Source: Candidatus Saccharimonadota bacterium
GTDB lineage: Bacteria; Patescibacteriota; Gracilibacteria; UBA4473
Reading direction: 5' to 3'
Length of the DNA: 32,000 nucleotides
NCBI GenBank assembly: GCA_030429505.1
Contig: JAUIFI010000001.1
Coordinates: 630,001-662,000, forward strand
Under the pieces are notes generated by a model. The model was not told where the DNA came from. It did no database searches and saw only the letters and a program-made list of their open reading frames with translations. How positions within the stretch are numbered: position 1 is the first letter of the stretch; every line of letters begins with the position of its first letter. Below are positions 7,768 to 29,649 of this stretch, in pieces. The translations under genes were made by a program, and so were the position numbers.

Positions 7768-8205
7768 ATGAAATTGAATCAACTCGCTCCCAAAACACGA
7801 AAAACTCGAAAGAGAAAAGGTCAGGGTAATGCTGCCGGACAAGGTACTTACGCCGGACGAGGCTGTAAGGGTCAAAATTCTCGAGCAGGAGGAGGTGTGC
7901 GATTAGGTTTTGAAGGCGGACAAACTCCCCTCATCCAACGCATGCCAAAGCTCCGTGGATTCCGGAATCCCAACCGAGTTGAAACACAAGTCATCAATCT
8001 TTCAGATTTAGAAGCAAAATTCAAAGACGGAGACACGGTAAATCTCGAGACCCTGATCAAAGCCAAACTCATCAATAAAAACAACTCCAAAGTAAAAATC
8101 CTTGGAAATGGTACGTGCAAGAAAAAATTAAACATTACAGACAGTATACTTCTTTCGAAAACCGCTGAAAAAGCATTAGCAAAACCAGCAAAAAAAGGAG
8201 AGTAA
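7768..8205 (+). CDS. rplO: 50S ribosomal protein L15 (uL15)
   Basis: RKRKGQGNAAGQGTYAGRGCKGQNSRAGGGVRLGFEGGQTPL. It starts 9 nt after the rpsE stop, leaving no room for rpmD. Confidence 0.95.
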   Translation: MKLNQLAPKTRKTRKRKGQGNAAGQGTYAGRGCKGQNSRAGGGVRLGFEGGQTPLIQRMPKLRGFRNPNRVETQVINLSDLEAKFKDGDTVNLETLIKAKLINKNNSKVKILGNGTCKKKLNITDSILLSKTAEKALAKPAKKGE

Positions 8206-8238
8206 AAAAATAGTTAATTAATTCAAAATCTTAGCGAA

Positions 8239-8286
8239 CCAAATTCAAAACACTGCTCCCTTCTTTTAGGAACACTATTTTGAATT

Positions 8287-8289
<3 letters not shown>
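8239..8289. terminator. 12-bp inverted repeat between convergent rplO and tRNA genes
   Basis: CCAAATTCAAAA (8239-8250) pairs with TTTTGAATTTGG (8278-8289) across a 27-nt loop. The right arm overlaps the CCA end of tRNA-fMet. There is no clean U-run, so the function is uncertain. Confidence 0.3.
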
Positions 8290-8361
<72 letters not shown>

Positions 8362-8366
8362 TTCAA

Positions 8367-8457
8367 TGGTGCACGAGAGAGGACTTGAACCTCCACGAGA
8401 ATAAAAGTTCTCACTAGCCCCTCAAGCTAGCGCGTCTACCAATTCCGCCACTCGTGC
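8367..8457 (-). tRNA. tRNA-Leu (GAG), long variable arm, CCA encoded
   Basis: The reverse complement reads GCACGAGTGGCGGAATTGGTAGACGCGCTAGCTTGAGGGGCTAGTGAGAACTTTTATTCTCGTGGAGGTTCAAGTCCTCTCTCGTGCACCA. The anticodon loop is TTGAGGG. It lies 5 nt from tRNA-fMet. Confidence 0.92.
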
Positions 8458-8561
8458 GTCAAAAATACGGAACAAGTGACGAGATAAAATACACAAAAGT
8501 CACTTTAGACCAAAAAAGAGCTTGAGGATTCTAAGGGGCTGTCCTTTTCTTGTCAACCGGA

Positions 8562-8589
8562 TTGATATTCAGACTAAAATAAGTATAAA
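8562..8589 (+). promoter_or_regulatory. Candidate promoter TTGATA-N16-TATAAA for the ATPase gene
   Basis: The -10 box ends 11 nt before the ATG at 8601, implying a very short leader. The AT-rich context makes this weak evidence. Confidence 0.35.
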
Positions 8590-8600
8590 AAAACAAAGAA

Positions 8601-11171
8601 ATGAATAAAACGAAAAAGACAATACTCAGACTCTCCGTTCCTCAATCAAACGAAAGAGGTCCCTTAGCCTTCGAACAAATTCTAGCCAGTCTTCACGGGC
8701 TTCTCATCAAAGAAATAAAAAAATCCAGTGACGAATCAATAAGCTTCGAAATCGTACGTTCTGAAAAAAGAATATTCTTTTATATTGTGATCCCTTCACA
8801 CTTACGAACACTTATCTCATCACAATTCTACTCTCAATACCCTGAAGTTGAAATCGAAACCGTTTCTGAATACTTCACCAAAAAACTTGTCAAAGACAAA
8901 CAACTTCTGATTGCTGACATCGCCCCAAAAGAGTTATGGATATTTCCCTTTAAAAGACACCCCCAATTTGAGGATTCTACAACAGGGAATTTTGAAGACC
9001 CTCTTGGTCCTATGACCGCAGCTCTTTCCCATCTTCATGGGAAAGATGATACAGCACTTCTTCAATTCATCATCGCCCCAGTACCAACGAGTTGGAACAA
9101 AACAGCTCAAAGTGCCATCGAAAACATGTCCAAATCTGGTATGTGGAAATGGAGCTGGGTTCAAAGAGCCTACCAGTGGAGCAAACTCAGTCCAGGAGAA
9201 GAAGAAAAGTTTAAAAAAACGCTCACTCGAATAGGACTGTCTCTATTGAGTAAATTCTTCGGAGGAAGTAAACCCGAAACAAGTGAAGAAGAAAACCAAG
9301 AAGGGAAAACATCCTCAAAACACGAAAAAGAAGGACCAATCGCCGCCGCTCAAGATAAAATAAGTCGACTCAATTTCTCGGTAAACATCAGAACGCTCTA
9401 TATCCATTCTGATCCAGACACGCAACACGCAGAAGCCAAAATTCGAGAAATTGCCGGAACTTTTCAACAGTTTGCACTTCCCAAAATGAACCGTTTCGGA
9501 GTCACAAAATTAGAACGAGATATGAAATCAAAGTTATTCAAAGACATTATTTCCCGAAAGAACCATAACCCCTTTGTCTTAAGCCAGGAAGAACTTGCCA
9601 CTATATTTCACCTCCCAACAAAAACCGTCAGTAGTCCTCGTATTCAATGGGTTCTATCACAAAGACTCGAACCACCAGTAGACCTCCCAGATGAAAAAGA
9701 AGGAAACGTTACCATAATCGGAGAAACAAACTTTAGAAATCAGCATGAACAGTACGGCATCAGAACGAATGATCGGAGAAGACACGTATACATCATTGGA
9801 AAAACGGGAATGGGAAAATCAACCTTACTAGAAAATATGATTTTCTCAGATATAAAAGACGGTAAAGGAGTCGCAGTCATAGACCCTCATGGAGATCTTG
9901 CAGAAGCAGTTTTACGATTTGTTCCTAAAAACAGAACCAATGATGTTATTTACTTCGACCCAGCAGATAAAGAGTTTCCAATCGCCTTTAATATGCTAGA
10001 AGGAAAAAATGCAGAAAAACGCTCACTCGTAGCATCTGGACTACTTGGAGTATTCAAAAAACTTTACTCTAATTCTTGGGGACCTAGGCTTGAACATTTT
10101 TTAAGAAATACCATCCTTGCCCTTGTTGAAGCTCCTGATACAACGATGCTTGGTATCCCAAGAATGCTCGTTGATAAAATCTATCGAGAAAAAGTTCTGC
10201 ATTTCGTGACAGACCCCATGGTTCAATCGTTTTGGCGTACAGAGTTTAGTGGTGGGATGTCCCCACAAAAAATGGCTGAAGCCGTCAGCCCTATTCAAAA
10301 CAAAGTCGGACAATTTCTATCTACCCCCACAATCCGAAATATTTTAGGACAAACAAAATCAAGTCTCGACCTACGCTTCGCCATGGATAGTGGAAAAATC
10401 ATTATTGTAAACCTATCTAAAGGAAAAATTGGAGAAGATAATTCATCACTCCTTGGATCACTCCTTATTACAAAATTTCAACTCGATGCCATGAGTCGAG
10501 CCGATATTAGAGAAAAAGATAGAAAAGATTTCTATCTTTATGTCGACGAATTTCAAAACTTCGCTACTGATTCTTTCGCTACAATCTTATCCGAAGCCAG
10601 AAAATATCGACTCAACCTCACCATGGCCAATCAATACGTTGCTCAAATGTCTGAAGAAGTAAGAGATGCAGTATTTGGAAACGTAGGAAGCCTCATATCA
10701 TTCCAAATAGGGTTTGATGACGCCAAAATTTTCTCCGAACAATTTGACGAAAAAATCGTAAAAACAAACGACCTCATCGGACTCCCAAAATACCACGTTT
10801 ACAACCGCATATTAGTTGAAGGAATCACAACACAAGTTTTTTCAGGAAAAACCCTCCCTCCCCCCAGTATCATTAGCGAAGAAGATCCTGAAGAAAGACG
10901 AGATAAAGTCGTCAAATTTTCTCGTCAACGCTACGCCAAACCACGAGAAATCGTCGAAGAAAAAATCGCTCGTTGGACTCGACCGGAAGAAGAAAAATAT
11001 AAAAAAAGAAAGGAAGAAGAACAAAAGAAGAAAGCAGAACTAGCCACCTCTCAAACAAACATTCCTTCTAAAAATGTTACAAAAGAAGTAAAAAATGACA
11101 TCAATCCACATCCTGAAAAAAAAAGTGAAAATCCAGTACCAAATTCTATAGGAGCAAAAGAAAAACAATAG
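8601..11171 (+). CDS. Soluble VirD4/TraD/TraG-like (FtsK-HerA superfamily) P-loop ATPase with large uncharacterised N-terminal domain
   Basis: Walker A is IIGKTGMGKSTLLEN (~9798-9824). Walker B is FYLYVDEFQNF. NLTMANQYVAQM and GNVGSLISFQ match type IV coupling-protein-like cores. I recognise nothing in the ~380-aa N-terminal region, and no N-terminal TM helices are visible. The tail is K/E-rich and looks disordered. Confidence 0.75.
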   Translation: MNKTKKTILRLSVPQSNERGPLAFEQILASLHGLLIKEIKKSSDESISFEIVRSEKRIFFYIVIPSHLRTLISSQFYSQYPEVEIETVSEYFTKKLVKDKQLLIADIAPKELWIFPFKRHPQFEDSTTGNFEDPLGPMTAALSHLHGKDDTALLQFIIAPVPTSWNKTAQSAIENMSKSGMWKWSWVQRAYQWSKLSPGEEEKFKKTLTRIGLSLLSKFFGGSKPETSEEENQEGKTSSKHEKEGPIAAAQDKISRLNFSVNIRTLYIHSDPDTQHAEAKIREIAGTFQQFALPKMNRFGVTKLERDMKSKLFKDIISRKNHNPFVLSQEELATIFHLPTKTVSSPRIQWVLSQRLEPPVDLPDEKEGNVTIIGETNFRNQHEQYGIRTNDRRRHVYIIGKTGMGKSTLLENMIFSDIKDGKGVAVIDPHGDLAEAVLRFVPKNRTNDVIYFDPADKEFPIAFNMLEGKNAEKRSLVASGLLGVFKKLYSNSWGPRLEHFLRNTILALVEAPDTTMLGIPRMLVDKIYREKVLHFVTDPMVQSFWRTEFSGGMSPQKMAEAVSPIQNKVGQFLSTPTIRNILGQTKSSLDLRFAMDSGKIIIVNLSKGKIGEDNSSLLGSLLITKFQLDAMSRADIREKDRKDFYLYVDEFQNFATDSFATILSEARKYRLNLTMANQYVAQMSEEVRDAVFGNVGSLISFQIGFDDAKIFSEQFDEKIVKTNDLIGLPKYHVYNRILVEGITTQVFSGKTLPPPSIISEEDPEERRDKVVKFSRQRYAKPREIVEEKIARWTRPEEEKYKKRKEEEQKKKAELATSQTNIPSKNVTKEVKNDINPHPEKKSENPVPNSIGAKEKQ

Positions 11172-11174
11172 TTT

Positions 11175-11636
11175 CTATTCACTCAAAGATATAATTTTTG
11201 AAAAATGTTCCTGGGAAAGAGGCATTACTGATAATCTATTTCCTCTTTTCAAAAGTTGCATATCCACAAGATCAGAAACATCCTTCATGAGAGAAAGAGA
11301 AACAGGATTTTCTAACTTTCGAATCGGTTCAACATCTACCATATACCACCGAGGATTTTCCCGACTAGAAGTCAAATCAGGATGATCGGAGTCAGAATCA
11401 AATGCCGTATGGTCAGGATATCCATCTCGAACCACCTCACAAATACCCACGACAGCAGGTTCTTTACAATTAGAATGGTAAAAAAGCACTTGATCCCCCT
11501 TTTTTATCTCATCACGCAAAAAATTTCTCGCTTGATAATTTCGAACCCCATCCCAATGGGTCGTTCCATCCCTCATCAAATCATCAAAAGAATAACAAGT
11601 AGGTTCTGACTTAAAGAGCCAAAATCGAGTCGCCAT
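11175..11636 (-). CDS. EVE (PUA-like) domain protein
   Basis: FWLFKSEP..YS.DDL......WDGVRNYQARNFLRDEIKKGDQVLFYHSN...PAVVGICEV matches the EVE/THYN1 family. The track start at 11645 is a TTG, so the ATG at 11636 is preferred. Confidence 0.85.
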   Translation of the reverse strand: MATRFWLFKSEPTCYSFDDLMRDGTTHWDGVRNYQARNFLRDEIKKGDQVLFYHSNCKEPAVVGICEVVRDGYPDHTAFDSDSDHPDLTSSRENPRWYMVDVEPIRKLENPVSLSLMKDVSDLVDMQLLKRGNRLSVMPLSQEHFSKIISLSE

Positions 11637-11714
11637 AAAGTCCAAAAAATATTACAATAGCGCCATATTAGCAGTTTCATAATCCATAAGCAATAACTAT
11701 TCATCGATAACCAT

Positions 11715-12644
11715 ATGAATATAGAACAAGCAATCGAACGATATCTCAAGCATCTCAAAAATATCAAAAACGCCTCTCCTTACACCATCAGAAACTATCA
11801 ACGTAGTTTAGATTTACTCGTAAAAACACTTGGAAATAAAGCGACACTTTCAGACATTACTATGGAAAAAGTAGACACCTTCCGAGATCAAATTTTCGAA
11901 TTAAAGAGTCGCGATGGACAATCATTATCACGACGCACTCAAAATATCTACCTGACACCAGTGAGAGCTTTTCTAAAGTTCTGTATCATACGAGAACTGT
12001 CACCAGAAATACTTTCTCCAGAAAAAATAGAACTCCTAAAACTTGATCCACGAGATGTAGCAGGACTCACTTCTGAAGAACTTAATCGTTTAAGAAATAC
12101 GAATACTTCTAAAAACGAAATAATTAAAAGTCGCGATAGAGCTATCGTTGAAATGCTCTTTTCTACGGGACTAAGAATCTCAGAGCTCTGCAAACTCGAT
12201 CGAGAAAACATTAACCTCAAAACCAAAGAATTCTCTGTGCTTGGAAAAGGAAAAAAAAGGCGAACCGTATTTCTTACAGAAACTGCTACCGCATTACTCG
12301 AAAAATATCTAAATTTAAGAACTGACAACTTTCCTCCTCTCTTTCTGAATGCAAAAAAAAGGAAAGATGAATTTATTACTCAAGGAGAATCTCGTCGCAT
12401 ATCACGAACCGCAATCGAAATAATGATTCGTCATCGAGGTCGTCAAGCTGGTATCACAAAACCAGTCACGCCTCATATCCTCAGACACACTTTTGCCACC
12501 ACATTACTCCGCAATGGTGCTGATCTAAGATCAGTCCAAGAACTTCTCGGACACTCTAGCATCGCCACTACTCAAATCTACACACACTTTGTCAATGCTG
12601 ATCTCAAAAAAACCCATCAAAAATTTCTAGAAAAAGAAGATTAA
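11715..12644 (+). CDS. Tyrosine site-specific recombinase, XerC/XerD family
   Basis: N-terminal SAM-like core-binding domain (YL..L...KN.SP.TIRNY.RSL). C-terminal catalytic signature HILRHTFATTLLRNGADLRSVQELLGHSSIATTQIYTH. Confidence 0.9.
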   Translation: MNIEQAIERYLKHLKNIKNASPYTIRNYQRSLDLLVKTLGNKATLSDITMEKVDTFRDQIFELKSRDGQSLSRRTQNIYLTPVRAFLKFCIIRELSPEILSPEKIELLKLDPRDVAGLTSEELNRLRNTNTSKNEIIKSRDRAIVEMLFSTGLRISELCKLDRENINLKTKEFSVLGKGKKRRTVFLTETATALLEKYLNLRTDNFPPLFLNAKKRKDEFITQGESRRISRTAIEIMIRHRGRQAGITKPVTPHILRHTFATTLLRNGADLRSVQELLGHSSIATTQIYTHFVNADLKKTHQKFLEKED

Positions 12645-12771
12645 GTTGCGAGAACAAAAAAAATTTTTACAATCAAAAAGCTATTAAAAAAAATCTAAAA
12701 ATATTTCGAGCTTAAGCTTGAAATAAGAAGGGAGAAGACTAAGAAATACAAAGTCAGCTCCAACCACAGAC

Positions 12772-12848
12772 GCCACCTTAGCTCAGTTGGCTAGAGCAGC
12801 GGCTTTGTAACCCGCAGGCCATCGGTTCGAATCCGATAGGTGGCTCCA
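12772..12848 (+). tRNA. tRNA-Thr (TGT), CCA encoded
   Basis: GCCACCTTAGCTCAGTTGGCTAGAGCAGCGGCTTTGTAACCCGCAGGCCATCGGTTCGAATCCGATAGGTGGCTCCA folds as a cloverleaf. The anticodon loop is TTTGTAA, and positions 31:39 form a C:C mismatch. Confidence 0.9.
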
Positions 12849-12850
12849 GG

Positions 12851-12890
12851 AAAAAAATCAGTGCCCCCGAATGGGGGAAGTGATTTTTTT
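12851..12890. terminator. Intrinsic terminator-like hairpin after tRNA-Thr
   Basis: A7-TCAGTGCCCCC-GAAT-GGGGGAAGTGA-T7. The core is a CCCCC/GGGGG stem flanked by an A-run and a T-run, so it could act in both directions. Confidence 0.6.
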
Positions 12891-13080
12891 GCCATGAGCG
12901 AAGCTCAACCGGATGAGAACCGATGGTTCGTTTTGTTTCCCATGAACGCAGTGAATGGCTGGAACAAATCTCAAGCGAGTTCCAAAACATTGGAACGAAG
13001 TGACGAGTATCCGATAGATAATTGTTCTATAACAGATTAAAATTAAAAAGATAACAAAAGAATTGTCTAAACCAAAACTC

Positions 13081-13196: not shown

Positions 13197-15344
13197 TCAA
13201 GACCTCTCCAAAAATTCCAACAAATTGACCACGACTTTTGCTAACTGTTCACGCGTCAAAGCATCATCCGGTCCAAAAAATCTTGCCCCAGAACTCGAAT
13301 CATAACCGCTAATAATACCGTTTTGAGAAGCCCATATCACAGCCCGAGAAAAATCTTGATCAGAAGAAATATCCGCAAAATCACTCTCATCAACATTAAT
13401 ACCAGACAAATCAACTCCTGATAGCATCACGAGAATTCGTATAGTCTCCCCACGAGTAATGGAAAGTGTAGGCATCATTTTCCCATCAATTAAAGCTGGT
13501 ACTGCTTTGATCTGTTTCGCTCGCTCAAAATAAGGTGCTGACCAGAAATCAACACCTACATCTGAAAATGGAGGAGCTGAAACCACATCAGGCACACTAA
13601 ATCCAAAAGACTCCAAGCCAACTTTAACAAGTTGTTCACGCGTCACCTCATCATGCTTCCCAAAAAGTCTCAAGCCATCATCATATCCAGTCATGATTCC
13701 CGCCGCTGAAACTTTATCAACATATTCTTTTGACCAGTCTTCAGAAGAAACATCACTAAATTCTCGCGGGCTAGAAATTGCCACCAATTCACTAAAGGTA
13801 ATCGATCGAGAAGTATCCTCAACCACTTTATCCTGTGTAGAAGTCACAGTGTCATCAACTTCGGATGTAGCATTAGTCACATTCTCAGTCTCTTCTTCGA
13901 CCTCCACCACAGATTGAGAAGATTCTTTTTGAACTCCCAAAGTCTGACAAGACTGTGTCCCACACAAAGCGTATCCCTTTGCCCGAACCCATTCATGCAA
14001 ACACTCTGATTGTAAACCCAAGCATTCACGATAATTTTGATAAGCTTCACTTCCATCCTCCACAGCATACATACGAACACACTGCCCTCCCCCACCAGGA
14101 TTACAAACACTAATTGTCGGGCGAACTGGAGCACCTCCTCCGTTATTACTTGCAGAAATCGCAGGAGGCGTGAATGTTGCTACATTCAAAGCAGCTCCAT
14201 CCGCAATCGCTGTCACATCTTGAGCTGCCATATCATCAATCACCGCTGCAGTAATAGACAAATACGTATCCCCCTTCACAGAAGAAAAATTTGTATCTGC
14301 ATTAAGTGCCGCCGTATCAGTTACACTCAAATTAATCACAATACTAAGCCCATCAGAGGAAGCTGTCGTACTATCCACTAAAGTGTATCCATGAGTTTTA
14401 GTAGGAGCATTCTGAATAGTAATCCCTGTTACCGCTAAAGTACTAGCATCCACCGGCTCACTAAAATTCAAAGTCAACAGCCGAGTCGCCATATTCAATG
14501 TCCAAGAAGTCACCGTCGGACTTGTTGTATCCGCTGTAAAAGTTGTCGCATCAATCGCCGCTCCATCCGTCACATTCGTCAAATCCAAAGCATTTTCAAG
14601 AGCATCAGTAATGAGGCTTCCCGCTGCAATTTCCAAAAACGAAGTCACTGCCGAAACTCCCAACCCCGTATCTAATTTGATCGCATTAAGATCTGTCGCC
14701 GATAAAGTAATCGTCAATGTATCACCATCAGTCCACGCCGAAGTACTATCAGTCAAAGTATAAAACTCTCCAGCAGTACTTGTATTATTGCTTTCTTGTA
14801 GAGTAATCTTTGTCTCATCCACATTCGCTGTCGTATCCATTTGCTCTGAAAAATTCAATACCATCGTGCCGGTATTCATATTTAAGACCCAATTATCAAC
14901 CACCGTAGGCGCTGTCACATCCACCGCAGCTGCATTAATATCAGTCGCACCTTGAGCACAAGCATTTGCTGCCCCATCATCAAAGATCTCATTTGCTGCA
15001 CAAGCAATAGTTAGTTCACCGGCACCTCCCAAATCAATATTGGCACTCATGGTTAAAACAGCATACCGAGTACTCGCAATATGAGTGACGTTAGTGATAG
15101 TCAGACCATCCGTCCCAGCCACTGTAAAATCCCCCGCTACGATCTGAACTCCAGCTACACCAGTTGTCGAACTAACAGCCTCAGAAAAAGTAATAAGGAT
15201 TTTATCCGTGGTCCCATTTTTAGCTTGAATACTAGCAGTAAAAGTCGGCGCTGCCGCCTCCGTTATAGGTACAAAAAAGAACCCCGACATCACACTCAAA
15301 AAAAGCGCAATTAACATCGAAACTCGACGGAAAAAAGTGAACAT
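13197..15344 (-). CDS. Secreted S-layer-type protein: signal peptide, three Ig-like repeats, Cys-rich linker, three C-terminal SLH domains
   Basis: The N-terminal hydrophobic signal is MLIALFLSVMSGFFFVPITEAAA. Three ~125-aa repeats carry (A/S)PT(F/V)...L(I/N)(T/F)SE(A/Q/P)(V/M)(S/D). The SLH motifs are FSDVSSEDWSKEYVDKVSAAGIMTGY, FSDVGVDFWSAPYFERA and FADISSDQDFSRAVIWASQNGIISGY (nt ~13200-13760). Confidence 0.85.
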   Translation of the reverse strand: MFTFFRRVSMLIALFLSVMSGFFFVPITEAAAPTFTASIQAKNGTTDKILITFSEAVSSTTGVAGVQIVAGDFTVAGTDGLTITNVTHIASTRYAVLTMSANIDLGGAGELTIACAANEIFDDGAANACAQGATDINAAAVDVTAPTVVDNWVLNMNTGTMVLNFSEQMDTTANVDETKITLQESNNTSTAGEFYTLTDSTSAWTDGDTLTITLSATDLNAIKLDTGLGVSAVTSFLEIAAGSLITDALENALDLTNVTDGAAIDATTFTADTTSPTVTSWTLNMATRLLTLNFSEPVDASTLAVTGITIQNAPTKTHGYTLVDSTTASSDGLSIVINLSVTDTAALNADTNFSSVKGDTYLSITAAVIDDMAAQDVTAIADGAALNVATFTPPAISASNNGGGAPVRPTISVCNPGGGGQCVRMYAVEDGSEAYQNYRECLGLQSECLHEWVRAKGYALCGTQSCQTLGVQKESSQSVVEVEEETENVTNATSEVDDTVTSTQDKVVEDTSRSITFSELVAISSPREFSDVSSEDWSKEYVDKVSAAGIMTGYDDGLRLFGKHDEVTREQLVKVGLESFGFSVPDVVSAPPFSDVGVDFWSAPYFERAKQIKAVPALIDGKMMPTLSITRGETIRILVMLSGVDLSGINVDESDFADISSDQDFSRAVIWASQNGIISGYDSSSGARFFGPDDALTREQLAKVVVNLLEFLERS

Positions 15345-15471: not shown

Positions 15472-15499
15472 TTGTATTAACTTTGAAAAATCATACAAT
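15472..15499 (+). promoter_or_regulatory. Candidate promoter TTGTAT-N16-TACAAT
   Basis: The -10 box ends 3 nt before the first ATG (15503). This favours the second ATG (15527, MKKFILK...) as the real start. Confidence 0.4.
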
Positions 15500-15526
15500 C
15501 ACATGGAAAAGTATCATACACTCAAA

Positions 15527-16669
15527 ATGAAAAAGTTCATACTCAAGACCACGCTTTTACTCTGTGGAATCGGAGTACTATTTAATACAGTTCAAGCTCA
15601 ACAAATTCCCGTCATGGAATTCTATCACGGTGCCACCTGTCCTCATTGTCACCGAGAAAAAGCATGGTTTCCAGAATTAAGAAAACTCTATCCCGACGTC
15701 CAAATCAAAGAATACGAAGTATGGCTAAATGCTGGAAATAAAGCCATATTTCAAAAACGATTAGCAGAGCTTAATACCACTTCATCCGGAGTCCCCACCA
15801 ATATCATCAACGATGAAGTCATCGTTGGCTTTGATCCAGAGAGGATTCTTGACGCGTTTGAAAGACACTTTGGACCTCCAGCCAACCCAGAATCAACCAT
15901 AGAAATTCCAAAAGAAAATGATGGTTGGAAGAAATATCTCAACAGCTCATGGCCTATGATGAGCTTCATGTTAGGAATACTCGATGGTTTCAACCCATGT
16001 GCTATGTGGACACTCTTAATTCTCATTGGCTTCCTCCTATCCATGGAAGACAAGAAAAAAAGATGGCTCATTGGACTCATCTTTGTCGGAAGCTCTGCTG
16101 TTATCTACTTTGGGGCTCTCCTCGCCTATCTTCTTGGATTTTCCCAGATCGCCGCCTTCGCAACCGGAACCATTATGAACTGGATTTTTCATATTGTAGG
16201 AATCACCGCCATTGGAACTGGTATCTTTGCCTTCAAATCAGGACTTCAAGGCAAAGGCATTGATTGCGATATTCGAGATGGAAAAAGCAAAAAAAACTTC
16301 AAAGACAAACTTCAAAATATTCTGGCAAAAGAAAAAATGCTCGTCATCATCATAAGCATTATTGGACTTGCATTCTCAGTCAATATGATCGAACTTCTGT
16401 GCAGTTTTGCTATCCCGACCGCCTTTACCGCTACACTCGTTAAGCTCGATATCTCTTTTGCACAACAAATATTAGCACTACTTATCTACGATATCGCCTA
16501 CATCCTAGATGACATACTAGTACTATTCATCGCGCTCTGGACCCTAAATCTCAAAGTTTTCTCTCCTAAAATAGTTAATATATCTCATCTCATTGGAGGT
16601 ATTATTCTCGCTATTTTAGGGGCTTTTCTCATATTTGATCCAAGTTTTCTCGGAGAAATTTTATCATAA
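15527..16669 (+). CDS. Membrane thiol-disulfide oxidoreductase: thioredoxin/glutaredoxin-fold (CPHC) domain fused to a CcdA/DsbD-like polytopic domain
   Basis: Signal/anchor MKKFILKTTLLLCGIGVLF. CxxC active site in FYHGATCPHCHREK. TM domain with LDGFNPCAMW and a second Cys in ELLCSFAIP, about 6 TM helices. The ORF track has an alternative start at 15503. Confidence 0.65.
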   Translation: MKKFILKTTLLLCGIGVLFNTVQAQQIPVMEFYHGATCPHCHREKAWFPELRKLYPDVQIKEYEVWLNAGNKAIFQKRLAELNTTSSGVPTNIINDEVIVGFDPERILDAFERHFGPPANPESTIEIPKENDGWKKYLNSSWPMMSFMLGILDGFNPCAMWTLLILIGFLLSMEDKKKRWLIGLIFVGSSAVIYFGALLAYLLGFSQIAAFATGTIMNWIFHIVGITAIGTGIFAFKSGLQGKGIDCDIRDGKSKKNFKDKLQNILAKEKMLVIIISIIGLAFSVNMIELLCSFAIPTAFTATLVKLDISFAQQILALLIYDIAYILDDILVLFIALWTLNLKVFSPKIVNISHLIGGIILAILGAFLIFDPSFLGEILS

Positions 16670-16671
16670 AA

Positions 16672-16942
16672 AGAGCGTATCCTTCTCTTCACCGCATACA
16701 AGAGGTTCGAGAAAGGATACGCTGGTGCGCAACGGGCTTAATATTGCAAGAGTATTTCTACTCTATGCTAAACCCAATATAAGACATACAACAGTCAAGA
16801 TCAAGGCACTCGAGTCAGTGGCTCTCAATTCGGCGCATGCACGCCACTTTAAGTGGCTGGATGCCTAGGAACATCCAGCCTGCAACGCGTTGACCTTGAT
16901 CGGTATCGAGCTACCGATTTCAAGACCAGCTTAGTGCGTCAC
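16672..16942 (-). ncRNA. Candidate structured ncRNA of unknown class (~270 nt)
   Basis: A gene-free block that is much more GC-rich than its surroundings: 32/60 G+C in 16841-16900 against 13/60 in 16961-17020. On the minus strand an extended -10 box TGATACAAT sits at 16957-16949. An 11-14 bp hairpin (16674-16723) followed by CTTTTT is oriented for minus-strand termination. Internal hairpins include GGCTGGATG/CATCCAGCC (16855-16880) and CGGTA/TACCG (16901-16916). Ends could close via GCUGGU/ACCAGC. Strand assignment is moderately secure; the RNA class is unknown. Confidence 0.5.
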
Positions 16943-17043
16943 GGTTACATTGTATCATAGGATGTTAAACGAATGAAAATAAAAATACATAAAGTCAACT
17001 AAAAATATCTGCAAAAGTAAAAATCACGCTATACTCAAAAAGC

Positions 17044-18384
17044 ATGAAAAATACTGCCCGAAACGTCATCCGACACATCCAGTCACAGGGCTATAAAGCA
17101 TATTGGGTCGGAGGATGCGTCAGAGACATGCTACTTCATAAAAAACCTCAAGATTACGACATTGTTACCGATGCTTCGCCAGAAGTCATCGAAAAACTTT
17201 TTGAAAAAACCTACGATATCGGGAAAAAGTTTGGCATCATCCATATCCACGAAAAAGGACATGAATTTGAAATCGCCACCTTTCGTTCAGATAGCGGCTA
17301 CAGCGATGGACGCAGACCTGACGCAATACTTTTCAGTAACCCAGAACAAGACGCCAAACGCCGAGACTTCACCATCAACGGAATATTCTACGATCCTATA
17401 GAAAAACAATACCATGACTTTATCAAAGGCATATCAGATCTCCGTCGAGGACTACTTCGCTTCATCGGTAACCCTGACCAAAGAATCAAAGAAGATCATC
17501 TAAGAGTTCTCCGCGCAATAAGATTTAAAAATCGTTTCAACCTCACCTATGAAAAAGACACCAAAAAAGCCCTCAAAAAACACGGATCTCTTATTATTAA
17601 CGTAAGTGGAGAAAGAATTCGAGATGAATTGAATAAAATTATTGTTCACAAAGACAGATACAAAGCCTTCCAAGACTTAGACAAACTAAAATTAGGACAA
17701 AAAATACTCCCCGAAGTCTGGGCTACCAAAAACATTCCCCAGTCCCGAGACTATCACTCAGAAGGCGACGTCTTTGATCACACTTTGTTGGTACTCAAAA
17801 ACCTTCGCCCCCACCTCCCCACACATACCTACTGGGCAGCCTTATTACACGACATCGGCAAAACTGAAACAATTCAATACCAAGGAAAACGCATCCGTTA
17901 CCCCGACCATCAATATGTCAGCTGCACATTAGGAGAAACACTACTTAAACGACTTTCTTTCTCGAAAAAAGATCAAAAAAACATTCTCTGGATCATCAAA
18001 CACCATCATATCTTCGATAACTGGGATGACATGAAAGAATCAACTCGACTACACTATTATGACCATCCTCTCTTTCTTGATCTCTTGGAAGTACACAGGG
18101 CTGATATATTCGGCTCCAAACCACTTTCCTACCAAACCCGAGACCAACTCCGGCAAAAAATTCTCCATATCCAAGCAGGCTATTACGATGCCCATACAGA
18201 GAAAAAAACACCTTCTCACAACACCGATCTTCTCAGCGGAAACGAAATCATGAAACTCCTTAATATTGAATCCGGATCCAAAGTCGGAGAAATCAAAGAT
18301 CAATTGCGAGAAGAACAACTCCACCAGAACATCACCAACAAAAAAGAAGCCAAAGCTTGGCTCAAAAAAAATATCCAAAACTAA
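17044..18384 (+). CDS. cca: CCA-adding enzyme (tRNA nucleotidyltransferase, PolyA_pol head plus HD domain)
   Basis: YWVGGCVRDMLL...DYDIVTDA head motif and RRDFTINGIFYD. The HD region is ALLHDIGK. Confidence 0.88.
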   Translation: MKNTARNVIRHIQSQGYKAYWVGGCVRDMLLHKKPQDYDIVTDASPEVIEKLFEKTYDIGKKFGIIHIHEKGHEFEIATFRSDSGYSDGRRPDAILFSNPEQDAKRRDFTINGIFYDPIEKQYHDFIKGISDLRRGLLRFIGNPDQRIKEDHLRVLRAIRFKNRFNLTYEKDTKKALKKHGSLIINVSGERIRDELNKIIVHKDRYKAFQDLDKLKLGQKILPEVWATKNIPQSRDYHSEGDVFDHTLLVLKNLRPHLPTHTYWAALLHDIGKTETIQYQGKRIRYPDHQYVSCTLGETLLKRLSFSKKDQKNILWIIKHHHIFDNWDDMKESTRLHYYDHPLFLDLLEVHRADIFGSKPLSYQTRDQLRQKILHIQAGYYDAHTEKKTPSHNTDLLSGNEIMKLLNIESGSKVGEIKDQLREEQLHQNITNKKEAKAWLKKNIQN

Positions 18385-26758: not shown

Positions 26759-27478
26759 TTAGTTCACAACTAAAGTAGTTACTCCTGATTTTGAGAAAAT
26801 TGTATAAATCCCTGACGAAAAATCATCCGTAAAGATTATTCCATTAGAAATGGTCTTCACTTTCCTACCCATAATATCATATATTTCCGAATCTTCCTCT
26901 GAAGGAGAAATACGAACAGTTTCTCCCTTATTTGAAGGATTCGGGTAGCAAAGAAAATTCTCCTTGCTATTGACATTCGGAGAAGAAACCGATGTAAAGA
27001 TAAACTTTGGTCGATAACGGAAAAGAGCGGGAAATTCTCCGATTTTTACAACTCTACCATCACCAATCGCGAAAAGAGTCACCAAATAAGTATTATTTCG
27101 ATACCTAAAAATATCGTGCTCCCACAGATCCAAAGAAATACGAAATTTCCCATCGGATTTCAAATCTTGAGCTTTATTTATTTTGTAATCAAAATACCCA
27201 TGCAAGGGTAATTGTTTCCCATCAAATGCGGTGAAAACTAGATAATAATCATAATCTATGTATTCATGCATATGATCCTCCCCTGAGGTGTCTTTCACTT
27301 CAGGATCAAAACAAAAAAGCACATTACGGTCAGTTATTAGCGTATCATCCGGGTACTGAGGACCCAGTAGCGAACAAGGATTCAATTGCCAAACATCGGG
27401 ATGAATATCCACATCTTGTGCAAAGATATGACTATTCAAGATGCATAAAAAAACCAAAAAACAAGATAAATACTTCAT
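26759..27478 (-). CDS. Secreted protein with T9SS-type (Por_Secre_tail-like) C-terminal sorting domain
   Basis: Signal peptide MKYLSCFLVFLCILNSHIFAQD. The C-terminus is CYPNPSNKGETVRI....IYDIMGRKVKTI......FSSGIYTIFSKSG..TTLVVN. Confidence 0.75.
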   Translation of the reverse strand: MKYLSCFLVFLCILNSHIFAQDVDIHPDVWQLNPCSLLGPQYPDDTLITDRNVLFCFDPEVKDTSGEDHMHEYIDYDYYLVFTAFDGKQLPLHGYFDYKINKAQDLKSDGKFRISLDLWEHDIFRYRNNTYLVTLFAIGDGRVVKIGEFPALFRYRPKFIFTSVSSPNVNSKENFLCYPNPSNKGETVRISPSEEDSEIYDIMGRKVKTISNGIIFTDDFSSGIYTIFSKSGVTTLVVN

Positions 27479-27717: not shown

Positions 27718-29649
27718 ATGAAAAAACCAGAAAAAAACTCCATACTAAAACAAAGTAAAGAGAAACGCCATCTCCATAAAATCTGGATTACTCTTGGCGT
27801 TATTTTAATAGGAAGCTCCGGAGCGTATTGGCAATACTCAAAAAAGAATCAAACTGCTCCCACTGAACCGGAAATTTTTACCGTAGCCAAAAAAGACCTT
27901 CGATCTGTCGTCTCTTCCGATGGGAATATCATCAACCCCAACATCGTCAATCTCTCTTTCTTCGTCAATGGAACCATTGAGAAAATCTTGGTCAAAGAAG
28001 GCGACAAAGTCGAAAAAGGACAAATACTCGCTGAACTTGATAAACGAGATTTTCAGTTTGACCTACAAAGTGCACAAAACGACGTACGCATCGTCAATGC
28101 CAACATAAAATCCAAGCAAGCCGAACTCACAGACACAGATCTCAAAGTAGCACAAAATGACCTAACTACAAGCAAAGAAAGCTTAGAATCAACTGAACGA
28201 GACCATGAACAAAAAGTCACCCAAGCCCTTGATTCAGCATCAATAAACATTGAAGCATCAATCCCCGAAATAGAAACAGCACTTCAGGACATAGACGATA
28301 TACTTGGAATAAACAACATTCATTCGGAAAAAACAGCCATATATGCCATTTTTCATAACTCAACCAAAGAGACAGAAGCAAAAAATCAACACCACAGCAT
28401 TCATCAAGCATTCAAAAATTTTTCTCGAAAATATAACTCCCAAAAAGGAATTTCAAAAACAGAAAATGTTCCTCAATACCTTAAAGATATAACAGAAATA
28501 ACAAGATCAACACAAAGCTTATTAGAAGACGTTGTAGAACTCATTAAAGACACACGCCCTACAACCTACATAACAGAAAGCGAGATTAAAACTATTCTTT
28601 CCTCTACCCAAAGCACACTTGATACCATGATCAGTCAGGTTTCAACGCTAACAAAGGCTAGACAAGCCATTGATTCTTCTATCATTACTCAAAAAAATGC
28701 CCTCATCAGTGCGGAAAACTCACTCAACAGCACCCAAACAAAATTTGAAAACAGTGAACGAAACTATGAAAAAGCTGAAGTGAATAAAGAATCGAGCTTA
28801 TCTGTCCTCTATGCCCAACTCGAACAAGCCAAACTCAAAGTCGAAAAAGCGCAATACAACCTCAGCCTCACGACACTTACATCACCCATCAACGGAGAAA
28901 TTATCCAGCTCAACGGAAACGAAGGCGAAGCCATCAAAGCCGAATCTACGAGTAGTGAAAATGCTTTTATAAAAATCTTGAGTGACGCCAACTTTACCAC
29001 TGAAGTCTATGTCGAAGAAATCGATATTGCCCAAATATCACTCGGGCAAGCCGTCGATATCACCCTCGATGCTATTCCCGATACGATATTACGAGGAGAA
29101 GTTACCTTCATCTCGAGCACTGCGACCACCGATAATAACGGCATCGTCACCTACTTGGTCCGCATCTCCATCACCGATCCCAAAGACGCTCCGATTCGAG
29201 AAGGTATGACGACCTATGTCGACTTTATCCTCGGAGAAGCAAATGATGTACTCGCCATACCAGTCACCGCTATCCGTCGAAATCGCATCACCATGACAGA
29301 CGGAAGCACACGAGAAGTGAAGACCGGATTCTCTGACGAAAGCTTCATTGAAATTACAGAAGGTCTGAAAGAGGGAGAGAAAATCTTACTCAATCCTCTC
29401 CAAGAAAAAAATGGCAGAAGAGCTCGTACTATAGGAAGACAATCTCTGCAAGGCAACGTCACCAGAACCCTCCCTCCCGAGCGTATCGAAGCTATGAAGC
29501 AAGCTGGCTTCACCGACGAAGAGCTTCAAAAATTACAAGCCGGAGAATTTACCGACGCCATGCGAGAAAAAATGCAAAAGATGAGAGAAGCAGGAGGGAA
29601 TGATAGAGGCGGTTTTCGAGGAAGGACTGGCGGCGGATTTGGACGATAA
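27718..29649 (+). CDS. HlyD/MacA-type periplasmic adaptor (membrane fusion protein) with greatly expanded coiled-coil hairpin and RGG tail
   Basis: N-terminal TM (IWITLGVILIGSSGAYW). Lipoyl half-motifs are GTIEKILVKEGDKVEKGQILAELD and LTSPINGEIIQLNGNEGEAI. They are separated by ~290 aa of heptad-like sequence. A beta-barrel/MPD region follows, then a C-terminal GGFRGRTGGGFGR tail. Confidence 0.85.
   Translation: MKKPEKNSILKQSKEKRHLHKIWITLGVILIGSSGAYWQYSKKNQTAPTEPEIFTVAKKDLRSVVSSDGNIINPNIVNLSFFVNGTIEKILVKEGDKVEKGQILAELDKRDFQFDLQSAQNDVRIVNANIKSKQAELTDTDLKVAQNDLTTSKESLESTERDHEQKVTQALDSASINIEASIPEIETALQDIDDILGINNIHSEKTAIYAIFHNSTKETEAKNQHHSIHQAFKNFSRKYNSQKGISKTENVPQYLKDITEITRSTQSLLEDVVELIKDTRPTTYITESEIKTILSSTQSTLDTMISQVSTLTKARQAIDSSIITQKNALISAENSLNSTQTKFENSERNYEKAEVNKESSLSVLYAQLEQAKLKVEKAQYNLSLTTLTSPINGEIIQLNGNEGEAIKAESTSSENAFIKILSDANFTTEVYVEEIDIAQISLGQAVDITLDAIPDTILRGEVTFISSTATTDNNGIVTYLVRISITDPKDAPIREGMTTYVDFILGEANDVLAIPVTAIRRNRITMTDGSTREVKTGFSDESFIEITEGLKEGEKILLNPLQEKNGRRARTIGRQSLQGNVTRTLPPERIEAMKQAGFTDEELQKLQAGEFTDAMREKMQKMREAGGNDRGGFRGRTGGGFGR

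Follow-up and report, generated by a model that had tools for sequence, protein, structure and literature searches.

Between the stop codon of a thioredoxin-fold/CcdA-like (Trx-CcdA-like) membrane protein gene and the start of cca, the 32,000-nt stretch of contig JAUIFI010000001.1 analyzed here (hereafter, the window) contains a GC-rich, gene-free block whose minus strand carries an extended -10 promoter element, a strong predicted RNA fold and an intrinsic terminator. We give about an even chance to the proposal that this block is a lineage-restricted, independently transcribed gene for a structured small RNA (sRNA) of ~276 nt (16942-16667, minus strand), the product of which acts in trans. 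The block is an orphan GC-rich intergenic structured-RNA candidate, which is a known kind of element, and it is as yet without a family. An earlier note on this DNA had described the region as a candidate novel structured RNA. The region is indeed gene-free, GC-rich and strongly folding, with same-strand transcription signals and no Rfam family, but the conserved structure implied by that wording is not supported. The sequence elements listed in the note are all present, either in place or shifted by a few bases.

Composition and transcription signals of the block

The G+C content is 47.9% in 16672-16957, with a peak of 54.5% in 16800-16900, as compared to 25.6% in the 86-nt spacer 16958-17043, 23-31% in four other spacers and 39.6% in the window as a whole. 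The contrast reported previously is therefore genuine, although the quoted values of 50% and 22% were slightly too generous. The block also lacks coding potential. Its sole open reading frame (ORF) under translation table 11 starts with TTG, encodes 77 aa at 16635-16868 on the plus strand, overlaps the end of the upstream gene and has no Pfam hit. Reading TGA as a sense codon (table 25) still yields no credible ORF in the block, and its six-frame translation found no relative among 5.8 billion proteins (E <= 10); with neither genetic code nor this search giving coding potential, the previous statement that the region has no credible ORF holds. The Trx-CcdA-like gene terminates at the same residue as its homologues, with which its C-terminus aligns, and cca has its own -10 box (TATACT, 8 nt 5' of its ATG), so the neighboring plus-strand genes have no need of signals from within the block.

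On the minus strand, the extended -10 box that had been claimed is confirmed (Table 1). Its -35 region is weak, with 3/6 matches as judged by eye (TTCATT), and because of this a sigma-70 scan omitted the site. The ATACAAT core of the box recurs in two other apparent promoters, CATACAAT before the Trx-CcdA-like gene and TATACAAT before the gene that starts at 27478. Judging by the spacing to the -10 box, transcription would begin at about 16942, and this predicted start is exactly the first base of the closing helix P1 described below. At the other end of the block, the terminator arms (16674-16684 and 16713-16723) are 100% complementary, the stem of the hairpin (16674-16723) extends to ~16 bp, and the hairpin on its own folds at -25 kcal/mol (z -5.7). 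The terminator of the earlier note, a hairpin followed by CUUUUUA, is real, and no minus-strand gene follows it within 1.3 kb; a simple terminator scan missed the hairpin because its apical part exceeds the 8-nt loop limit of the scan. A U-tract follows the hairpin on the minus strand only, with none on the plus strand. A promoter and an intrinsic terminator are hence found on the same strand around a non-coding stretch, which is the arrangement expected of a stand-alone sRNA gene.

If the block is such a gene, its expression may be envisaged as follows. RNA polymerase would start at the extended -10 promoter TGATACAAT with its weak -35, and the first eight transcribed bases, GUGACGCA, would pair with the UGCGCAC located directly before the terminator. 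The resulting helix, P1, would close a domain of ~220 nt made up of five hairpins (H1-H5) and a U-rich single-stranded linker, and the transcript would be released by the constitutive ~16-bp hairpin and its U-tract. The RNA would presumably act in trans as a stable and folded molecule, because the terminator is without a serious competitor and no minus-strand gene follows. As to its function, our guess is a lineage-restricted regulatory RNA of the protein-binding or scaffold type rather than a cis-acting leader.

Table 1. Features of the block and its surroundings, with positions numbered within the window
Feature	Position	Strand	Remarks
Extended -10 box TGATACAAT (TG-n-TACAAT)	16957-16949	-	AT-rich DNA upstream
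Predicted transcript 5' end and 5' strand of P1 (GUGACGCA)	16935-16942	-	~7 nt past the -10 box
Predicted hairpin H1	16887-16930	-	9-bp lower stem (two G-U), AA bulge, 6-bp upper stem, GCUCGA loop
Predicted hairpin H2	16855-16880	-	9 perfect bp plus 2 G-U, CCUA loop; pair probability 0.96
Predicted hairpins H3 (apical stem 16831-16846) and H4 (16806-16822)	16806-16853	-	Least certain part of the fold
U-rich linker CUUGAUCUUGACUGUUGUAUGUCUUAUAUU	16777-16805	-	Predicted mostly unpaired; contains CCUUGAUC
Predicted hairpin H5	16733-16776	-	8+3+6-bp stem, asymmetric AAUAU internal loop, GAAA (GNRA) tetraloop
3' strand of P1 (UGCGCAC)	16725-16731	-	One base upstream of the terminator stem
Intrinsic terminator (~16-bp hairpin, then CUUUUUA)	16667-16723	-	Identified by complementarity and folding
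D1 left copy TCTCGGAGAAATTTTATCATA	16648-16668	+	Last codons of the Trx-CcdA-like gene
D1 right copy TCACGGTTACATTGTATCATA	16939-16959	+	Holds the -10 box and the predicted start of the opposite strand
Trx-CcdA-like membrane protein gene	15503-16669	+	Upstream neighbor
cca	17044-18384	+	Pfam PolyA_pol, PolyA_pol_RNAbd and HD domains

Predicted fold and strand bias

The 279-nt minus-strand RNA has a folding energy of -106.2 kcal/mol against a shuffle mean of -78.9 (z -6.1), and 0/200 shuffles were as stable. Among 456 windows of 280 nt taken from both strands of the whole 32 kb, the block ranks first for folding z, and its excess folding energy is equaled only by the region of tRNA-Thr plus terminator. 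The plus strand of the block reaches -94.3 kcal/mol (z -4.5); the minus strand is thus more stable by 12-13 kcal/mol and contains 8 G-U pairs vs 4. H2, H5 and the terminator each have z <= -4.4 individually, and H5 and H3/H4 fold clearly better on the minus strand.

P1 is predicted as an interrupted 7-bp helix between 16942-16935 and 16731-16725 with a pair probability of ~0.8, in which 16942-16940 pair with 16727-16725 (0.82) and 16938-16935 with 16731-16728 (0.76). Within the domain it closes, H1 folds at -15.4 kcal/mol (z -3.0) with pair probabilities of 0.87 and 0.98 for its two stems, and H2 at -17.4 kcal/mol (z -4.45). Both correspond to helices already pointed out in the earlier note: its bulged stem is real and spans 16891-16928 (pair probability 0.87-0.98), and its 9-bp stem is perfect (16855-16863 with 16872-16880), growing to 11 bp when the two G-U pairs are counted. 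H5 is predicted with pair probabilities of 0.90-0.98 at -17.2 kcal/mol (z -5.1), as compared to -12.0 on the plus strand. H3/H4 is the part where rival GCCACU/AGUGGC pairings arise; its pair probabilities range from 0.32 to 0.85, and its z is -1.9 on the minus strand vs -0.8 on the plus strand.

A second layer of pairing had been suggested by the description of the RNA as switch-like. The segment GAUCAAGG (16894-16901) is complementary at 8/8 positions to CCUUGAUC (16799-16806, a span that reaches one base into H4), which offers an alternative to its pairing in H1. This is a single 8-nt complement and lies at chance level, with ~0.6 expected in ~280 nt by our own estimate, so the switch-like label is not supported. 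Nor did RNAduplex reveal a target for the sRNA above shuffled controls among 28 gene starts in the window.

A cis-acting alternative is a riboswitch-like sensor, the terminator of which would gate antisense read-through over the convergent Trx-CcdA-like gene, perhaps extending as far as a minus-strand SLH gene 1.3 kb downstream. In Listeria, Clostridium and Enterococcus, antisense RNAs under riboswitch control are known. The block does present a large folded domain with a terminator directly after it, as well as an alternative closing helix, the 3' strand of which (ACCAGCGUA, 16726-16718) overlaps the 5' strand of the terminator. The earlier note had proposed the GCUGGU/ACCAGC pairing as the closure of the ends; its complementarity exists, but as a closing helix it competes with the better-supported P1, and it makes no real antiterminator because it overlaps only 4-6 of the ~16 bp of the terminator. 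No other segment of the block is complementary to the terminator, no known riboswitch class was matched and the next gene on the same strand lies beyond the convergent gene, all of which makes such a sensor highly improbable. A riboswitch or attenuation leader is disfavored on similar grounds, i.e., no same-strand gene within 1.3 kb and no mutually exclusive antiterminator.

The strand bias also bears on the possibility that the block is simply GC-rich palindromic DNA without RNA function, such as foreign DNA in decay or clustered DNA hairpins, whose signals are incidental and whose hairpin mainly stops or stabilizes the convergent Trx-CcdA-like transcript. Palindromic 6-mers that are also restriction sites (CCTAGG, GCATGC, CTCGAG and ACGCGT) are frequent at hairpin centers and junctions in 16725-16945, and CAACGCGTTG is a 10-mer palindrome. 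Their enrichment is marginal (7 observed vs 3.4 expected, p ~0.05), and their position at the hairpin centers would suit inert DNA, as would the plus strand, which also folds well, as any DNA palindrome would. The G-U asymmetry and the energetic advantage of the minus strand by contrast argue against it, and without a U-tract on the plus strand the hairpin would be a poor terminator for the upstream gene. Likewise, -10-like hexamers are common in AT-rich DNA (a consensus scan returned 1 site vs 2.6 expected from shuffles), but the promoter, both ends of P1 and the terminator lie in line and share one orientation. Finally, the failure of every search to detect conservation and the absence of the block at syntenic positions in relatives (see below) agree with inert DNA, while a compact 1-Mb genome, whose other spacers in the window measure roughly 90-240 nt, would rarely keep 270 nt of junk. 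On balance, we regard inert DNA as unlikely.

Known families, relatives and the flanking repeat

Rfam 15 at the gathering threshold identified three tRNAs only in the whole window, none of them in the block. When 551 nt were compared with its 4227 models at E <= 10 and with lax filters, the result was just a chance snoRNA match outside the block, so that even at this permissive level no family was matched. The families covered include RNase P (RF00010/11), signal recognition particle (SRP) RNA (RF00169/RF01854), transfer-messenger RNA (tmRNA; RF00023) and 6S RNA (RF00013), along with riboswitches, T-box, group I/II introns and OLE/GOLLD/ROOL/HEARO/raiA. ARAGORN also found no tmRNA in the window. 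The remark in the earlier note that RNase P, tmRNA, SRP and 6S signatures could not be matched is upheld by these results.

These results bear on the idea of a highly divergent housekeeping RNA that Rfam has missed, for which 6S-like RNA would be the most plausible candidate and a minimal RNase P or an unusual SRP RNA less so. 6S RNAs are poorly conserved in sequence. The block resembles 6S RNA in its size (~220 nt plus terminator), its stand-alone gene and a closing helix joining the 5' and 3' ends, and its neighborhood of cca, an RRM protein and a DEAD-box helicase would not be out of place for a housekeeping RNA. It differs from 6S RNA in lacking a model match and in its string of five local hairpins, as opposed to a rod with a central bubble; both the minimum free energy and centroid folds are multi-hairpin with just a 7-bp closing helix, which as single-sequence predictions are not decisive. 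By eye, neither the RNase P P4 motifs (GAGGAAAGUCC / ACAGAA..GGCUUA) nor the SRP helix-8 motif (GGAA tetraloop with AGCA loop) were found in the block. We therefore consider a divergent housekeeping RNA to be very unlikely.

Several other candidates were rejected as well. The block has no tandem repeats, as a CRISPR or TIGR array would; it has no second copy in the window and no reverse transcriptase (RT), as a diversity-generating retroelement template would require; and its peptides are only 9-19 aa and not hydrophobic by inspection, which disfavors a type I toxin. A superficial AGC..GUAU likeness to group II intron domain 5 in the terminator has no Rfam hit. Among the window ORFs, there is no RT, Cas, Tas-like or transposase Pfam domain.

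In the GC-rich intergenic region (GC-IGR) approach of Stav and Brewer, long GC-rich spacers in AT-rich genomes are said to flag structured RNAs. The block is like the orphan candidates of this approach (Stav et al. 2019; Brewer et al. 2021) in being a long, ORF-free spacer that is GC-rich within an AT-rich genome, is predicted to fold strongly and belongs to no known family; it differs in that theirs became motifs via covarying homologues, whereas the block is a single sequence without a homologue. Trans-acting sRNAs of the RsaE/RoxS type and sponges of the CsrB/RsmZ type are similar in being independent units between protein genes, with several hairpins, a single-stranded stretch and a 3' terminator with a U-tail. 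Unlike these, the block lacks recurrent GGA or C-rich loop motifs and shows no target complementarity within the window, and it is longer than typical base-pairing sRNAs and more tightly closed by its 5'/3' helix.

Relatives of the block were sought as exact patterns, translated matches or within fetched loci. The closest non-self matches of the flanking proteins have 59% (cca) and 64% (Trx-CcdA-like) identity. Upstream of cca, five loci of relatives (L001-L005) have spacers of only ~105 nt; downstream of the Trx-CcdA-like gene, six loci (L006-L008, L329-L331) run into nrdG or another gene, or into an unrelated 231-nt spacer that carries palindromes resembling repetitive extragenic palindromic (REP) elements. 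Among the matches listed, the loci from Candidate Phyla Radiation (CPR) bacteria in the genome collection have no RNA-sized gap upstream of cca. A genome scan with an alignment query returned mostly Verrucomicrobia and Acidobacteria among the matches listed, and a single-protein query of genome contigs gave no match. With the block as the query, nhmmer matched neither any of the 88 loci from the genome scan nor the fetched cca and Trx-CcdA-like loci of relatives. The earlier note had held that absence of covariation together with absence of the region from relatives would refute a structured RNA. This has come about by half: none of the relatives examined carries the block next to cca or the Trx-CcdA-like gene, but with their gene order scrambled, absence at these positions is not proof of absence from their genomes.

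Broader collections were equally uninformative. Stop-free frames of the block served as pseudo-proteins, so that ORFs wrongly called on homologous RNA genes might be picked up, and HMMER with these returned repetitive junk only from 1.84 billion representatives. Scans with back-translated patterns in viral and metagenome collections gave no confirmed match, which is a weak negative because the tblastn confirmation is too strict for RNA homologues. The exact 18-mer CCGATCAAGGTCAACGCG in metagenomes led, among the matches listed, to loci of 69.5% G+C, none RNA-like, and it reads as common high-GC coding sequence. The block had no blastn match among phages and plasmids, and three of its 18-21-mers had 0 matches in IMG/VR. 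Negative outcomes of such searches do not imply that other genomes lack the RNA.

As a separate observation, the spacers of relatives contain palindromes resembling REP elements or miniature inverted-repeat transposable elements (MITEs), namely TGTCATCCCCGCGAAGGCGGGGATCCA, TGTCATTGCGAGCGTAGCGAAGCAATC and TGTCATTCCCGCTCGTCGGGAATCG (L330 10337-10566 and 14548-14600; L329 ~13850-13900). None of these is present in the block.

The block is bracketed exactly by D1, a 21-nt imperfect direct repeat with 16/21 (76%) identical positions and a 7-bp core, TATCATA, of which both copies end in TCA plus a stop codon. In the 451-nt region, D1 is the sole pair with at least 16/21 matches, and any such pair appears in 5% of shuffles. 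D1 may be a scar of site-specific recombination that brought in a small module, or an att-like site, although it could also be no more than a pair of minus-strand -10-like boxes (TGATAnAAT). Accordingly, the block might be a small inserted or mobile module, or a remnant of one, integrated site-specifically at the 3' end of the Trx-CcdA-like gene between att-like repeats, which would be compatible with an RNA gene. This would account for the D1 copies and their shared TCA-stop ends, as well as for relatives that carry the Trx-CcdA-like gene without the block, and a tyrosine recombinase is encoded 4 kb from it. That recombinase gene and its adjoining tRNA-Thr are syntenic in relatives and look housekeeping, though, and the right copy of D1 may resemble the left only by virtue of its -10-like box. 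A test for a MITE or REP element found the flanking D1, but no second copy in the 32-kb window and, by inspection, no terminal inverted repeats, and the phage, plasmid and IMG/VR collections are devoid of matches. Compared to known small att-bounded modules, the block is similar in having a repeat with a 7-bp identical core that overlaps a gene 3' end, and differs in that it lacks an internal recombinase and inverted terminal repeats, was seen in one copy only and has a cargo of just ~284 bp. Overall, an inserted module appears distinctly unlikely.

Immediately to the right of D1, GGATGTTAAAC at 16960-16970 is similar to the arm bound by XerD in bacterial dif sites (TTATGTTAAAT). The spacing and the GC skew argue against this assignment: only this one arm is XerD-like, the 11-6-11 XerC/XerD geometry is not seen, and the GC skew is negative throughout the window with no sign change. 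A dif/Xer site, as used by integrative mobile elements exploiting Xer recombination (IMEX), is for these reasons unlikely, with the arm spacing judged by inspection, which also detracts from an insertion.

Returning to the block as an sRNA gene, a number of points weigh against this proposal: 1) the promoter has a weak -35 and was not called by the promoter scan, 2) the predicted fold of H3/H4 is ambiguous, 3) folding statistics from one sequence cannot establish functional structure, and a passage of PMC8250186 likewise cautions that single-sequence folding z-scores do not prove it, 4) the palindromic hairpin centers fit DNA-level palindromes as well as RNA hairpins, 5) DNA, translated and pattern searches recovered no homologue and hence no covariation, 6) in relatives, no such block precedes cca or follows the Trx-CcdA-like gene, and 7) the block is bracketed by D1 and so could be inserted DNA with incidental signals.

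A bolder version of the sRNA proposal is that the block represents the founding member of an undescribed class of medium-sized structured non-coding RNA in CPR bacteria related to Gracilibacteria and Peregrinibacteria. Such an RNA would be a stable, closed, five-hairpin molecule, perhaps a scaffold for a ribonucleoprotein (RNP) with cca, the RRM protein and the DbpA-type helicase, and its homologues would be too diverged or too differently placed for exact-pattern or translated searches to recover. We view this version as speculative and rather unlikely. To our knowledge, no regulatory RNA has been experimentally characterized in CPR bacteria. If the block does encode a structured RNA, then 276 nt kept in a 1-Mb genome would probably be important and could provide an entry point to RNA-based regulation or RNP biology for these uncultured organisms; as an inserted module or inert DNA, it would be a minor curiosity. 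For now, it stands as a single well-formed candidate alongside many other orphan GC-rich spacers.

Source organism and wider window

The flanking proteins place the source among CPR bacteria labeled Gracilibacteria or Peregrinibacteria; the contig that carries the window measures 1.02 Mb. Gracilibacteria are known for reading UGA as glycine. In the window, long genes (e.g., 8601-11171 and 27718-29649) are without in-frame TGA and the gene at 13197-15344 ends in TGA, so the source genome uses the standard code.

Promoters across the window appear to be of a -10-only type and are often nearly leaderless (17028-17046, 15490-15546 and the 27478 region). At the start of the Trx-CcdA-like gene, a tandem repeat of 23-24 nt duplicates both the ATCATACAAT box and the ATGAAAAAGT start, and homologues begin 8 codons downstream of the annotated first ATG (15503).

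The window begins with a ribosomal-protein operon, from L4 to L15, which stops there without the usual continuation into secY and its customary followers. After L15, positions 7768-12848 contain tRNA-Met, tRNA-Leu (minus strand), a TraG/VirD4-like coupling ATPase, an EVE-domain protein, the tyrosine recombinase and tRNA-Thr, and this region may have arisen through integration of an element or through a rearrangement specific to the lineage. The order of recombinase and tRNA-Thr is shared by the window, L329 and L330. A terminator composed of an A-tract, hairpin and T-tract (12851-12890) follows tRNA-Thr and is itself followed by a GC-rich stretch of ~125 nt. This stretch, within 12849-13041, may correspond either to a 48-aa ORF (12895-13041) or to a conserved small RNA or element; its ends (CCGGATGAGAACCG..GTTCG.TT ... 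GA.TATCCG) recur behind tRNA-Thr in L329 (~1890-2120).

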